A stretch of DNA of 64,000 nucleotides from Promethearchaeota archaeon (lineage in GTDB: Archaea > Asgardarchaeota > Hermodarchaeia > Hermodarchaeales > Hermodarchaeaceae), in assembly GCA_048939625.1 (NCBI GenBank), contig JBHLPH010000002.1, forward strand, positions 32,001 through 96,000. The letters are read 5' to 3'. Under the pieces are notes generated by a model, which was not told where the DNA came from, did no database searches, and saw only the letters and a program-made list of their open reading frames with translations. Each line of letters starts with the position of its first letter. Position 1 is the stretch's first letter. The translations under genes and the position numbers were made by a program. Below, in pieces: positions 51,476-56,753 of this stretch.

Positions 51476-51957
51476 GGCTTTTTTCCACCGGACTGATCTT
51501 TTTTACGATTTAATCGACGAATTTTGGGTACATAGCTGCGGAGGATGCCGTGGGAGAGACTTCCGCAGCCTAGGATAGTGTCGTTGTGGGTGACAATTAC
51601 ATATCCTCTTCGGTCGTCTTCATAATTAACCGATTCCCCTCTGAGCCAAGTTTCTGCCTGCAATCTAGTTAATTGGACGATTTGCTTTGTAGCATGAGTA
51701 CCAAGTAGTTGAGCACCATCCATGGAGAGCCGAAATGCTGTGGGCGAGTATTCACCGATGTATAGTCCGGTTGTGCCAGTGTATGGTAATTCCGAAAGGA
51801 GTGCAAATGCTGCATCACTAATAAGGCGAATCCGTTTGCGTCCTGACTTGAGAAACCTAAATCCAGCAAGTTTTGGAATGCCAAATTGGCTATAGAGTAG
51901 TTGCCAGATGTGGGTTTCCCGCGCAGAATCAATGGTCAGTGTTTGGCCGTGAGACAT
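51472..51957 (-). CDS. NOL1/NOP2/Fmu-associated PUA-like protein
   Basis: GLYIG, RLSMDG, A..WLRGE, GYVIV....ILGCG and YVPK.RR motifs; coupled to the m5C methyltransferase. Confidence 0.8.
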   Translation of the reverse strand: MSHGQTLTIDSARETHIWQLLYSQFGIPKLAGFRFLKSGRKRIRLISDAAFALLSELPYTGTTGLYIGEYSPTAFRLSMDGAQLLGTHATKQIVQLTRLQAETWLRGESVNYEDDRRGYVIVTHNDTILGCGSLSHGILRSYVPKIRRLNRKKDQSGGKKP

Positions 51958-52898
51958 TAGGCGTCCTTCCTGATCAAGGCTATGAAGAAGCCGTCTGTAT
52001 CATTATCCTGTGGATAAATTCGAAGACAGTCTTTGAGAGTTTCATGGTAGTGCGTTTTATTCCAGTAGGTGATTCCGGGATGGTAACGAAGGTTTGCGGG
52101 TTGTGGGGATTCAATGGAAGCCAAAGGAAAAGCACCAAGGAGGTGGTCGACCACCGCTTCATTTTCTTCCGGATGCAGACTGCAGGTTGAATAGACTAAC
52201 AGACCTCCCGGTTTGAGTAAGCGGAATGCTGCTGTTAGAAGTCCTTTTTGGATAGTCTGGATGCCGAGAATACGTTGAAGATTAGTAACCTCATATTGAG
52301 GTGATTTACTGCGAAGATGTCCAGACGCGGTGCATGGGGCATCAACAAGGACGCGATCGAATTGAAGAGGGATTCGTGTGGATAGGTGTCGACCATCTTG
52401 GCAAAGTGTGATAGTATTGATGACGCCACACACCTGTATATTGTGACCTAGGCTGGTAAGCCGTCGGAAAGATCTGTCGTTCGCAATTAGTGCGCCTTCG
52501 TTTTTCATCATCTGAGCGATCTGAGTGGTTTTCGATCCGGGAGCGGCACATAAATCAAGAACAACATGGTGTGATTGTGGGTCTAAAATTACGGGAGGAA
52601 CCATACTTCCTCCTTCTTGAATATAGAATAGCCCTAGCGAATATTCTTGGGTAAAGGGGAGTCGCTCATAGTCCCCAGTGATGCGGAATCCATCTGAATA
52701 CCAGGGAAGTGGAACGGGATTAACATTGAGGGCTTCTAATCGAGCGAGACCTGCTGTGAGGTCGGTTTTGATTGTGTTGATGCGGATGAAGTGAGTGGGA
52801 GGTTGGGAAATTGAAGCGAGGAAGCTTAGGTATTCATCTCCAAGAAGGATTTGGAATCGTTCTTCGAAAGCCGATGGGAGAGATTTAGATTTGTTCAT
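51957..52898 (-). CDS. RsmB/NOP2 family RNA m5C methyltransferase
   Basis: DLCAAPGSKT, DAPCT, YSTCS..PEENE and DGFF motifs. Confidence 0.95.
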   Translation of the reverse strand: MNKSKSLPSAFEERFQILLGDEYLSFLASISQPPTHFIRINTIKTDLTAGLARLEALNVNPVPLPWYSDGFRITGDYERLPFTQEYSLGLFYIQEGGSMVPPVILDPQSHHVVLDLCAAPGSKTTQIAQMMKNEGALIANDRSFRRLTSLGHNIQVCGVINTITLCQDGRHLSTRIPLQFDRVLVDAPCTASGHLRSKSPQYEVTNLQRILGIQTIQKGLLTAAFRLLKPGGLLVYSTCSLHPEENEAVVDHLLGAFPLASIESPQPANLRYHPGITYWNKTHYHETLKDCLRIYPQDNDTDGFFIALIRKDA

Positions 52899-52926: not shown

Positions 52927-54066
52927 TCATGGCGGGGAAGAACTAAGCCGATTCCGATGAATTGACCAGGTGGATATAACGCGATTGCCATCAACAACGT
53001 AATAATGAGCAAAAAGGTTAGCTGTCAGGCATGAATGGTTTGGAATTATACGAAGATGATCACCGGGCGAGAGCGCCTTATGTTGTGTTTTGTCAGCAAA
53101 CGTGATTTTCCCATGTTCCTGAGATAAGCTCGTTATTATTGCCTGATGTGTGGTGTTATTTTCATCCGGATTAAGAACCACTCCATATCCTTGGTTTGAT
53201 GGAATATGTGCTGCTCCGGTATCCTTGGATAAGGCAGTGGCACCGGCGTCGACCACCACATGCGTATCTTGGACACCAACTACGCTGGTAAGCACTGATA
53301 GAGCACAATCGGTGAACCGGCACACGCCAAGTGCGACTTGAGTATTATCAAAAAAGACATAGTTGCCAGGTCGAATTTCGGTTATTCCATCTTTAAATCG
53401 AGTTGCCAGCTTGGCGGTGGGTGTTGAACCTATCGAAACAACCTCAGAAGCTAGTCCATGAGATTGCAAGCTGTCAGAGAAGTGGAGCATTATATCTTGT
53501 TCATGATTAGCAATTGCCTGGATTTCCTGTGGGGATTGAGCAGTGTATGCATGACCCGCATGAGTGAGGATTCCTCCAAAGGTCAGGTTAGACGCCGCAT
53601 CAATTTGCTTTGCAAGAGAAATCGCACGGGAGTCTTGAGGGTCAATCCCACATCGATGATATCCACAATCCACCTTAACTAAGACGGTGAGCTGGAGATC
53701 TGCCGCAATGGAATAGGCTTCCAAGAGGGGAATCATTGCGGAATGATCAGTGACGATATTGAGTTGAGCTTGTTGAGCAAGTTCACCTAGACGAGGAAAT
53801 TTATCAGGAATAATAGGATATGCAAGTGTCACATCCATAAACCCATGATCAATGAACGTACCAGCTTCCCCCAAAGTCGAGACAGTGATGCCGTTTGCGC
53901 CGTATTCACGTTGGAGATTCGCGATTTCCATACATTTGTGTGTTTTAATGTGAGGGCGAAGACAAACCTTGTTTTGATGAGCCTTATCTGCCATGTTCTT
54001 TATGTTTCGGAGAAGTCTACTTTTCTCAATGAGCAAAGCAGGAGTGATTAGGTCATCAATTTTCAT
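52927..54066 (-). CDS. DSD1/D-threonine aldolase-like fold-type III PLP enzyme
   Basis: TPAL, RPHIKTHK, GSTPT, EIRPGNYVF.D, QEHG and PNHSC motifs; start taken at MKIDD. Confidence 0.9.
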   Translation of the reverse strand: MKIDDLITPALLIEKSRLLRNIKNMADKAHQNKVCLRPHIKTHKCMEIANLQREYGANGITVSTLGEAGTFIDHGFMDVTLAYPIIPDKFPRLGELAQQAQLNIVTDHSAMIPLLEAYSIAADLQLTVLVKVDCGYHRCGIDPQDSRAISLAKQIDAASNLTFGGILTHAGHAYTAQSPQEIQAIANHEQDIMLHFSDSLQSHGLASEVVSIGSTPTAKLATRFKDGITEIRPGNYVFFDNTQVALGVCRFTDCALSVLTSVVGVQDTHVVVDAGATALSKDTGAAHIPSNQGYGVVLNPDENNTTHQAIITSLSQEHGKITFADKTQHKALSPGDHLRIIPNHSCLTANLFAHYYVVDGNRVISTWSIHRNRLSSSPP

Positions 54067-54114
54067 CAACATCAACTCGTAAATGAACGGATCAACTGCT
54101 GAGAATGTGAAAGG

Positions 54115-54200
54115 TGTGGCTCCGCCTTGACTGAACCCACTTTCCTCGCAGCTCCTAACGGAGGCCTCGGTGGGTTTAAGATAGCCGTGTCGACGGAGCC
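54115..54200 (-). ncRNA. Candidate H/ACA box guide sRNA (predicted LSU rRNA helix 69 target)
   Basis: 9-bp basal stem GGCUCCGUC/GGCGGAGCC followed directly by ACA; internal pocket GGCUAUCUUA(A)/CAGUCA; upper stem AACCCAC/GUGGGUU; K-turn-like CCGAG/CUGCGAGG. Confidence 0.65.
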
Positions 54201-54302
54201 AACTATGCTTTCTGTTCAGCACCTGAAAAAAGCTCCCGTAGAGCGACAAGTGCAACCTTTTTTAACCGCAACAAGCAAAACCCCGTAGTCGAGGGACGCT
54301 TT

Positions 54303-55250
54303 ATGGTGAGCCTAAAATCGTATGAAAAGGTCCGGAAAGCTCTTGAAAAAATCGGGTTACCCGGACAAGATGCCTATGATTTACCAACCAGCGACCACCG
54401 GTTTCCAGATGGAGCCGGCTATCGGATTGAAATCTCGGGCGTTGAACGCCCGGAAGTCTTAGAAGCACTAATTGATGAATCGGATAAACGCGATGTGCCA
54501 GTTCATCGCCTCATTAGTGTCGTCATGGGAGCAACGCTTCTTGACGATAAAGAACTGAAGAAATTTGCCCAACTAGCCCATGATGCACAAATGGAAGTGA
54601 TCCTTACCCCTGGCCCACGAACCAGCTGGGATGTGGGTCGACAACTTGTTACATCTGAAGGTGTCCTGTCAGGAATGCGCTTTCGCGGCGCTGATAAGCT
54701 AGTAGAAGTTATTAGCGATATCAAAAGGGGCATTGAACTAGGCTTCCGAGGTTTCTTAGTCATCGATGAGGGACTACTCTGGGCTTTGAACAAGCTCAAA
54801 GAAATCGGTGAAATCCCGAAGGATATTACCTTCAAGGTAAGCATCTTTGCTGGCCACGCTTCCCCAGCGGGTGGTAAACTGCTAGAAGAATTAGGCGCAG
54901 GTAGCTTCAATCCAGTTGCCGATATGACCGTGCCCCAACTAGCAGCTATTCGCCAAGCAACAAAGCTGCCAATTGACATTCACATCATGCTCATGCCCAG
55001 CTTTGGTGGATTCAATCGATTCTATGAAGCAGCCGAAATTACACGATGCGTCCAACCAGTGTACTACAAATTTGAACCCGGACCGAGTATGGCCTTGTAC
55101 ACACCTTGGTCCTCGATTGACGGCCTAAGTTTCCTTGCCCGTGAAAAAGTCAAATGGGCTGAAATTGTACGAAACTTGATCCAAGATAATTATCCAGAAG
55201 CGAAATTATCAAAACTCGGAGTCAAGGACTTAGCGATCCCTCAACCCTAA
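54303..55250 (+). CDS. Conserved TIM-barrel protein (U32-like)
   Basis: FPDGA.YRIEI.GVE and G.RGFLV.DEGLL motifs; co-oriented with the downstream aldolase fusion. Confidence 0.5.
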   Translation: MVSLKSYEKVRKALEKIGLPGQDAYDLPTSDHRFPDGAGYRIEISGVERPEVLEALIDESDKRDVPVHRLISVVMGATLLDDKELKKFAQLAHDAQMEVILTPGPRTSWDVGRQLVTSEGVLSGMRFRGADKLVEVISDIKRGIELGFRGFLVIDEGLLWALNKLKEIGEIPKDITFKVSIFAGHASPAGGKLLEELGAGSFNPVADMTVPQLAAIRQATKLPIDIHIMLMPSFGGFNRFYEAAEITRCVQPVYYKFEPGPSMALYTPWSSIDGLSFLAREKVKWAEIVRNLIQDNYPEAKLSKLGVKDLAIPQP

Positions 55251-55268: not shown

Positions 55269-56753
55269 ATGGGATTTAAACCTAGCGGCGTGAATCCAGC
55301 ACTGGTTACGCCGTTTACCAAAGATGGATCGAAAGTTGATGTCACGGCCTTCCGTCAGCTAATTCGCCATTGCATCGATAATTTGGGGGTCACCGGTCTT
55401 GTTCCAGCAGGCACAACTGGAGAATTCACAAGTCTGACATTGACCGAGCACAAGCAAGTAGTAAAGCTTGCAGTTGAAGAAGCAGCAGGTAAGGTGCCAG
55501 TAATTGCAGGAGCCGGAGCGAGTAACACCAAAACAACCATCGAGCTAGTCAAGGCAGCAGAAAAGGCGGGAGCAGATGCGTGTCTGGTGGTCACACCGTA
55601 TTATATGCGTCCAACACTTCGTGGGCTCTATGAGCATTACCGTCAAGTGAGTGAAGTCGGTCTTCCAATTGTTCTGTATAATATCCCTCAATGTACCGGT
55701 CTTGATATGCCGTGGCAAATTGTTGAAGACCTTGCAGATCTTGAAAACATCGTCGGCATCAAAGATTCTAGTGGACAACTAAAGCTCATCCTAGCGGTCT
55801 TGGAGAAAGTTGGTTCGAAAATCAATGTGCTGGTGGGGCATGATGAAGTCGTATTCCCTGCTCTTGCATCGGGTTGTTCGGGGGCTATTCTTGCGAGTGC
55901 CCAATTGATTGGGGATATTTGGTTAGATATGCTCAAGAAGGTACAAGCGAAGAAATTCGATGAAGCCGTTGCACTCCAGTTGAAGGTCCAAAAACTCACG
56001 CGATTGATTGTGGGCTCAGGAGCTGCAGGAACAAAGGCTGGTCTCAAAATGATGGGTGTTCCAGTCGGTAAACCTCGACTACCCTTAACCTTTGGCGGAG
56101 TTCTTACGTATGAGAATCGGGAAGAAATTCGAATCGAACTAGAAAAACTCGGTAAAATCAAGCCCAAAGATGTGATAATTGAAGTCGAACCCAAAGAACC
56201 TCTTAAAGCACGATTTGGGGCATTTGGTTTCTCACCCGACCAGGTTAAAGATTTCTCATTGAAGATTGGTGAAGGGCTCTCTGGGGGTGGAGCTGAAGTC
56301 GCACACATCGACTTGATGATTGGACGTAAGGACGGTCCTGTTGGTTTTGCCTTTGCGCAAGCTAAGGCGGCACCCAAAGAGCGCATGGAACCTCTTCTCG
56401 CCATTCTGGAACCCAACCTCATGGTGAAGCCTGAAACACTGCTCGTTCCAACTGTTGCCAACCGTAGTATGCATCAAGCCAGCCTCTTTGGAGGTCCCGC
56501 ACAAACAGGGTGTGCCAAAGCCGTCATGGATTCCGTTGAAGAAGGTTTTATCCCCAAGTCAGCAGTCGACAAATTAGTAATAATTGCCACAGTCTTTGTC
56601 CATCCCACAGCAGTCGACCGGAAGCGCATCCAAATTAACAACTATAAAGCAATGCGACACGCCATCCGACGAGCCATTGAAGGCCGCCCAAGCATCGAAG
56701 AATTACTCCGCGACAAAGAATTTGCGAAACATCCGTTTCGCTGGGGACCCTGA
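55269..56753 (+). CDS. DapA/NAL-family aldolase fused to formaldehyde-activating enzyme (Fae)
   Basis: N-terminal ALVTPF, GTTGE, PYY, LYNIP and IKDSSG; C-terminal IGEGL....EVAHIDLMIG..GPVG, LLAIL.PN, GPAQ...AKAV.D.V.EG.IP and NY.A...AI.RA. Confidence 0.92.
   Translation: MGFKPSGVNPALVTPFTKDGSKVDVTAFRQLIRHCIDNLGVTGLVPAGTTGEFTSLTLTEHKQVVKLAVEEAAGKVPVIAGAGASNTKTTIELVKAAEKAGADACLVVTPYYMRPTLRGLYEHYRQVSEVGLPIVLYNIPQCTGLDMPWQIVEDLADLENIVGIKDSSGQLKLILAVLEKVGSKINVLVGHDEVVFPALASGCSGAILASAQLIGDIWLDMLKKVQAKKFDEAVALQLKVQKLTRLIVGSGAAGTKAGLKMMGVPVGKPRLPLTFGGVLTYENREEIRIELEKLGKIKPKDVIIEVEPKEPLKARFGAFGFSPDQVKDFSLKIGEGLSGGGAEVAHIDLMIGRKDGPVGFAFAQAKAAPKERMEPLLAILEPNLMVKPETLLVPTVANRSMHQASLFGGPAQTGCAKAVMDSVEEGFIPKSAVDKLVIIATVFVHPTAVDRKRIQINNYKAMRHAIRRAIEGRPSIEELLRDKEFAKHPFRWGP

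Follow-up and report, generated by a model that had tools for sequence, protein, structure and literature searches.

Genomic context and architecture of the hairpin

The window, by which we mean the whole 64,000-nt stretch of Promethearchaeota DNA analysed here, contains two divergently oriented protein-coding genes and, between them, a hairpin on the minus strand at positions 54200-54115. The gene that follows the hairpin on the same strand encodes a PLP enzyme with Ala_racemase_N and D-ser_dehydrat domains, and its ATG lies 48 nt downstream of the hairpin; just downstream of it we observed a gene for an RsmB/F-type rRNA cytosine methyltransferase (51957-52898, minus strand). The divergent gene (54303-55250, plus strand) codes for a protein of 315 aa that retains 81-97% amino acid identity across the family and is always linked to the sRNA gene. 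This protein has no match in Pfam or NCBIfam, and its nearest ESM-Atlas clusters are peptidase-U32-like (score 0.98). The peptidase U32 family includes RNA hydroxylases, and it is conceivable that the product of the divergent gene is linked to RNA modification. Adjoining it on the plus strand (55269-56753) is a gene for a DHDPS-family aldolase fused with a formaldehyde-activating enzyme (Fae).

All elements that an earlier sequence-only reading had described at this place, namely a basal stem, an ACA, a bipartite pocket, an upper stem and a tandem G·A motif, are present in the sequence (Table 1). The lower stem comprises 9 bp, one of them G·U, and is followed directly by the ACA; the upper stem comprises 6 bp, to which A54176-U54134 may add a seventh, pocket-closing pair. 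Above it, the GA at 54168-54167 and the GA at 54144-54143 are able to form tandem sheared pairs. The hairpin has a minimum free energy of -37.2 kcal/mol and folds better than shuffled sequences (z = -2.7). The 5' end of the RNA would lie near 54200-54202 and its 3' end ~3 nt past the ACA.

Table 1. Predicted H/ACA sRNA gene and putative promoter elements, in window coordinates
Feature	Position	Strand	Remarks
Whole predicted H/ACA sRNA	54112..54200	-	Conservation runs from the initial G of the lower stem to the ACA
Lower stem, 5' strand (9 nt)	54192..54200	-	9/9 positions paired in all 16 sequences; double-sided change in 6/9 pairs
Lower stem, 3' strand	54118..54126	-	Partner of 54200-54192
ACA box	54115..54117	-	Same in all 16 aligned copies; abuts the lower stem without a gap
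5' guide arm (16 nt)	54176..54191	-	11 pocket-proximal nt (54186-54176) complementary to 23S UUAAGGUAGCC
3' guide arm (8 nt)	54127..54134	-	AGUCA (54132-54128) complementary to 23S UGACU; GUC invariant
Upper (GA) stem, 5' strand	54170..54175	-	100% paired; one pair is CG, UG or UA; G·U variants at two others
Upper stem, 3' strand	54135..54140	-	Partner of 54175-54170
K-turn, non-bulged strand (C-G-A-G)	54166..54169	-	Unchanged in all 16 copies; GA faces GA 54144-54143
K-turn, bulged strand (C, 3-nt loop R-A-G, G-A, N-A)	54141..54148	-	Conserved; one extra nt before the stem
Apical hairpin (4-5-bp stem)	54149..54165	-	Stem invariant; loop variable in sequence and length; replaces most of the K-turn C-stem
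T-run, likely TATA box of the sRNA gene	54226..54231	-	-26 to -31, centre ~28 nt upstream of the hairpin; putative promoter
TTTTTTAA, likely TATA box of the divergent gene 54303-55250	54258..54265	+	Putative assignment

Upstream of the hairpin, a T-run is found at the same distance in all 14 genus copies (G000 included), and in the sister genus TTTTATCA or TTAATTTA stands in its place. Its spacing is that expected of an archaeal TATA box, and it is likely the better promoter for the sRNA than TTAAAAAA, the TATA-like box singled out by the sequence-only reading. That box is indeed present (minus strand, 54265-54258), but it lies 58-65 nt upstream of the hairpin and reads as TTTTTTAA on the plus strand, where it ends 38 nt ahead of the ATG of the divergent gene and is conserved genus-wide together with the spacer block. 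The whole stretch from 54226 to 54265 forms a conserved block of ~40 nt between the divergent genes, made up of the T-run on the minus strand, TTTTTTAA on the plus strand and a conserved spacer of 26 nt, and suggests a compact bidirectional promoter, perhaps with a regulator site as well.

Synteny separates the hairpin from the gene behind it. The divergent gene is present at every orthologous locus with enough flank, whereas the PLP gene follows the hairpin in only about half of these loci. Since the hairpin persists where the PLP gene is absent, the RNA is to be read as an independent gene, and the earlier placement in the leader region of the PLP gene holds for its position but not for a leader role.

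Conservation and covariation

By BLAST, the hairpin is kept in 16 of 18 family relatives (Hermodarchaeota MAGs). Of the 14 relatives from the same genus 13 carry it, as do 3 of the 4 from the sister genus; identity in these 16 genomes is 83-94%, and their 3' flank cannot be aligned. The relatives that carry both the RNA and its neighbour genes are mostly labelled Candidatus Hermodarchaeota or Promethearchaeota. We scored the structure on an alignment of 16 sequences; in a seventeenth copy (G004), the contig ends just before the ACA. Over these 16 sequences, 98.5% of the stem cells are paired, a value equalled by none of 500 shuffles and far from the 30-44% of controls in which the partner strand was slid. 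Both sides have changed in 8 of the 21 stem pairs, 6 of which belong to the lower stem, and the stems contain many G·U pairs that are valid only in the minus-strand reading, so that the strand of the RNA is determined. In fold z-score, conservation and stem pairing alike, the hairpin is far beyond chance.

Conservation is distributed unevenly over the unpaired parts. The segment GGCUAUC of the 5' guide arm is without change in 16 genomes, and outside the stems conservation is highest at the nucleotides complementary to rRNA, with free variation in the apical loop. This is the pattern of a guide RNA and not that of an RNA centred on its loop. As a separate observation, in three genomes a change of G to A at 54147, the first position of the K-turn loop, goes together with a change of A to C or A to U at 54142, five nt downstream; this co-change reflects either shared ancestry or a contact beyond the standard K-turn model.

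Among the Asgard genomes searched, the RNA was found only within the family. A covariance model built from the alignment (CM R1) scored 97-116 bits in 17 family genomes (G000 included) and gave no match outside the family in a search of 132 other Asgard genomes, and a pattern search with the guide arms in 400 Asgard genomes returned only family members and chance-level matches. A regular expression for the apical K-turn domain found nothing above chance in the host genome, and a pattern for the apical domain run across genome contigs recovered one copy per genome in 15 MAGs, again mostly labelled Hermodarchaeota or Promethearchaeota; the pattern thus revealed no paralogues with other guides. 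At gathering score, Rfam matched no family in the whole window, H/ACA families such as HgcE, HgcF, HgcG and snR84 included, and at E <= 10 it returned no H/ACA family for positions 53900-54450, only four chance-level matches.

The host genome, a MAG of 83 contigs with 87.6% completeness, encodes the proteins that an H/ACA RNP would need. Cbf5 scored 427 bits against an NCBIfam equivalog cut-off of 242, Nop10 was found, two genes belong to the L7Ae family, and a Gar1-like ORF falls 0.6 bits under the Pfam cut-off (28.7 versus 29.3). The genes for Cbf5-Nop10, Gar1 and L7Ae lie on contigs C19, C42 and C12. A strict H/ACA descriptor (lower stem of at least 7 bp, ACA, 14-17-nt spacing, upper stem of at least 5 bp, GA/GA) matched 7 times in the whole genome compared to 7 times in reversed controls; only the present locus was convincing, and the descriptor revealed no sibling guides. 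We rejected an HgcG candidate (RF00064) that had given one weak match in the genome (contig C63, E 0.03), as it folds no better than shuffled sequences (z = -0.47).

Predicted target in helix 69 of 23S rRNA

Rfam LSU and SSU models found no 16S or 23S rRNA in the host assembly, and the host target is inferred from the 23S of three relatives, two of the same genus and one of the sister genus. At helix 69, the 23S of these three relatives reads ...ACUAUGACUCUCUUAAGGUAGCCAAAUGCC..., and around the target UGACUC-U-C-UUAAGGUAGCC; if the assignment to helix 69 is true, the host 23S would read UGACUCUCUUAAGGUAGCC there. We scanned every U of the relatives' 23S and 16S, permitting a single mismatch in each arm and slight offsets at the top of the pocket. 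With a score of 15.5, the site on the 3' strand of helix 69 is 5.5 score units ahead of the runner-up, which reaches 10, and none of 300 shuffled guides reached 15.5 (mean 9.8, sd 1.05, maximum 15.0). Among the 13 tRNAs parsed from aragorn output, the best score was 7.

At this site, the 3' arm forms 5 bp (UGACU with AGUCA) and the 5' arm 11 bp with UUAAGGUAGCC, including one G·U. The complementarity of the pocket arms to the strings proposed in the sequence-only reading is thus borne out, with one correction: the rRNA had been predicted to read UGACUG, which would give a 3' arm of 6 bp, whereas the 23S of the three relatives has UGACUC. The nucleotide 5' of the target U is a C that faces C54133 of the guide in a C·C mismatch. 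Either the C-U-C of the rRNA is unpaired throughout, or A54176-U54134 closes the pocket over a spacer U-C-U of the U-N-N type, which is functional in Pyrococcus (PMC2377435).

Guide variation across genomes supports the assignment to helix 69. Changes of A to G at both ends of the 3'-arm duplex keep the pairing as G·U, and part of the genus adds a 12th pair to the 5' arm. In the sister genus, one or two pocket-proximal pairs are lost and three distal ones gained (UUU with AAA), with 9 contiguous pairs kept. The changes in the guide, then, either maintain the pairing or move it.

The unpaired U corresponds to position 1923 in Escherichia coli, 2266 in yeast, 3749 in human and 2066 in Sulfolobus islandicus. 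The same position in the helix 69 stem is a pseudouridine in yeast (Psi2266, snR84) and in human 28S rRNA (Psi3749) (PMC2794176), which confirms the proposed equivalence to the snR84 site. It is also Psi2066 in the 23S of S. islandicus, where its formation depends on the atypical H/ACA RNA sR148 (PMC11077068), and the description of the site as eukaryote-shared is correct only if it is not taken to mean that it is confined to eukaryotes. We consider it somewhat more likely than not that this exact U is the target.

rDNA introns at the predicted target site

Members of the same genus carry 23S rDNA introns inside the guide footprint in helix 69. One of them, 696 nt long (L012:453-1148, contig C60 of G005), separates the predicted target U (Ec1923) from the C that directly follows it in the exon sequence, and contains a LAGLIDADG_1 ORF (Pfam 1e-18). 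Introns of ~300-322 nt (L011 and L013, on contig C17 of G005 and contig C20 of G007) follow AAGGU (Ec1931), and both types share a 24-nt block near their 5' ends. Genome G005 apparently has two 23S variants at contig ends. Its 16S gene (L048, contig C71:619-4212) spans ~3.6 kb compared to a model of 1.48 kb, indicating several insertions or introns.

In the intron-bearing members of the genus, the full pairing of 5 + 11 bp exists only on the ligated exon junction. We speculate that the RNP could mark or help hold correctly spliced helix 69, with pseudouridylation depending on splicing or the RNP serving as a chaperone or check on splicing; we rate this link as quite unlikely, though if it were true, the long 5' arm and the slack in the pocket would be adaptations to an intron-split target.

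Geometry and comparison with known H/ACA RNAs

The RNA shows most of the defining features of archaeal H/ACA guides that can be tested in silico; in its K-turn and its spacing, the agreement is partial. The lower stem of 9 bp has the usual length (PMC4652768), archaeal guides having 7-9 bp directly before an ANA, which is mostly ACA. The distance from the upper stem to the ACA is 17 nt, or 16 nt if A54176-U54134 pairs, matching the 16-17 nt given in the sequence-only reading. Productive guides of Pyrococcus have 14-15 nt between the closing pair and the ACA, and predicted interactions at 17 nt were inactive (PMC2377435); the general range from closing pair to ANA is 14-16 nt (PMC4652768). The spacing found here therefore lies at the top end of the general range and exceeds what is productive in Pyrococcus; A54127, which stays unpaired between the lower stem and the duplex with the target, may take up one position. 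In productive archaeal folds, the stack that begins with the pocket-closing pair and ends with the second G·A pair must further comprise 10 layers (PMC4652768); the GA stem provides 10 if the invariant A54176-U54134 closes the pocket, and 9 otherwise.

The K-turn reads C-GA-G on the 5' strand and C-(RAG)-GA-N-A on the 3' strand and thus combines tandem G·A pairs with a 3-nt loop whose polarity is correct. It is non-canonical in two respects: its C-stem is reduced to one invariant C-G pair beside the loop, beyond which come an internal loop and the apical hairpin of 4-5 bp, and an additional nucleotide is inserted directly 3' of the GA pairs, before the stem. We discarded two alternative registers, the CC/GG pairing around the G·A with a 4-nt bulge proposed by RNAalifold and the reversed orientation, as neither has the strand polarity of a K-turn.

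We compared the RNA with the classic single-hairpin sRNAs of archaea, namely Pab91 and Pab160/Pf9 of Pyrococcus, sR115 and sR435 of S. islandicus, and sR201 and sR202 of Pyrobaculum. It shares with them a 9-bp lower stem followed by ACA, a bipartite pocket, an upper stem with tandem G·A pairs and an rRNA target, and its genome, like those of their hosts, has genes for Cbf5, Nop10, Gar1 and L7Ae. Unlike them, it has (i) no detectable homology in sequence or Rfam models; (ii) a 3' guide of 7-8 nt, which accounts for an ACA distance of 16-17 instead of 14-15; (iii) an unusually long 5' duplex of 10-11 bp; and (iv) a K-turn C-stem reduced to one C-G pair and an internal loop, with an extra nucleotide 3' of the GA.

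Three further systems resemble it in part. The atypical sR148 guides both Psi2060 and Psi2066 in the 23S of S. islandicus, where the archaeal helix 69 has the same eukaryote-like sequence (PMC11077068), and hence targets the same rRNA position; in contrast, the Hermodarchaeota RNA is a classic two-armed hairpin with ACA, for which a single site is evident. Yeast snR84 and the guide of human 28S Psi3749 have the same target uridine (PMC2794176), and a spacing of ~16 nt is usual in eukaryotes (PMC2377435), yet the H/ACA snoRNAs that serve as guides in eukaryotes have two hairpins and no K-turn, whereas the Hermodarchaeota RNA has one hairpin, and Rfam models detected no similarity that would speak for shared ancestry. 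Finally, the H/ACA-like sR204 and sR208-210 of Pyrobaculum carry a single-nucleotide bulge, placed one base pair 3' of both K-turn G·A pairs (PMC4652768), as A54141 or N54142 would be here, but lack the lower stem and ACA that are both present in our RNA.

Discussion

In this study, we examined a hairpin between two divergent genes of an Asgard archaeon and found that its architecture, its conservation and covariation, the RNP genes of its host and a target scan against shuffled controls agree with the earlier proposal of an uncatalogued H/ACA guide whose pocket fits LSU helix 69. Structure, conservation, strand, complementarity and the RNP genes are observations on the sequences, and they point very probably to a conserved gene for an H/ACA-type guide RNA of Hermod-type Asgard archaea. 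Our best explanation, to which we assign a probability of roughly 70%, goes further and holds that this independent gene of ~90 nt encodes a classic single-hairpin box H/ACA sRNA that guides pseudouridylation of helix 69.

From these observations we infer transcription, assembly of the RNP and the modification itself, as follows. The sRNA would be transcribed from its own T-rich promoter and fold into the lower stem, pocket, upper stem and K-turn-like motif, followed by the ACA. The PUA domain of Cbf5 would bind the ACA and the lower stem, and L7Ae the tandem-G·A kink of the upper part, with Nop10 and Gar1 completing the RNP. The arms of the pocket would then pair with the 3' strand of helix 69 in 23S, the 3' arm through 5 bp with UGACU and the 5' arm through 10-11 bp with UUAAGGUAGCC, leaving the U of C-U-C unpaired at a three-way junction, where Cbf5 would isomerise it to pseudouridine.

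The alternative that survives best accepts a genuine H/ACA-type RNP RNA but supposes that the U of helix 69 is not isomerised, the RNP acting instead as a folding chaperone of rRNA or modifying another RNA. Several features fit this view: the ACA spacing of 16-17 nt, the C·C mismatch beside the U, and a 3' duplex of only 4-5 bp on the arm said to matter most, as well as the mismatches beside the pocket in the sister genus and a host rRNA that is not assembled. Against it, the helix 69 site stands far above all other sites in 16S, 23S and the scanned tRNAs; in S. islandicus, Psi2066 is H/ACA-guided with a duplex of only 6 bp (PMC11077068); and archaeal guides that have been tested tolerate mismatches as well as U-N-N spacers (PMC2377435; PMC11077068). 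We therefore regard this alternative as unlikely, though not negligible. That the RNA belongs to a different, undescribed class of L7Ae-binding or otherwise structured sRNAs and is H/ACA-like only in looks we consider improbable, since the non-canonical K-turn, the missing Rfam match and the missing genome sibling under the strict descriptor are set against an invariant ACA that abuts a covarying 9-bp stem and against the concentration of conservation in the rRNA-pairing nucleotides and not in the apical loop. Least probable is a role in cis, either as leader or attenuator of the PLP gene or within the bidirectional promoter of the divergent gene, for although the hairpin lies so close to the PLP ATG on the same strand and always adjoins the divergent gene, it is unchanged in at least 6 loci without a downstream PLP gene, has its own T-run, is not covered by the transcript inferred for the divergent gene and covaries in its stems with G·U pairs, that is, at the level of RNA and in a strand-specific manner.

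Reading the hairpin as a helix 69 guide reveals no new mechanism. A crenarchaeon and eukaryotes are already known to carry an H/ACA-guided pseudouridine at the target site; the guide itself belongs to no curated family. To our knowledge, neither Rfam nor routine annotation covers the guide RNAs of Asgard archaea, and we came across no catalogue of Asgard H/ACA guides among the papers that could be searched. As a classic ACA-bearing guide with a spacing of 16-17 nt and a reduced K-turn, the RNA should be useful for better descriptors of archaeal H/ACA RNAs.

Eukaryotes have their closest known relatives in the Asgard archaea. The RNA described here would provide them with a testable guide for a position in the helix 69 stem that is pseudouridine in yeast, humans and Sulfolobus, and may thereby add a data point to the view that some of the pseudouridine pattern in eukaryotic rRNA, together with its RNA-guided origin, is older than eukaryotes.
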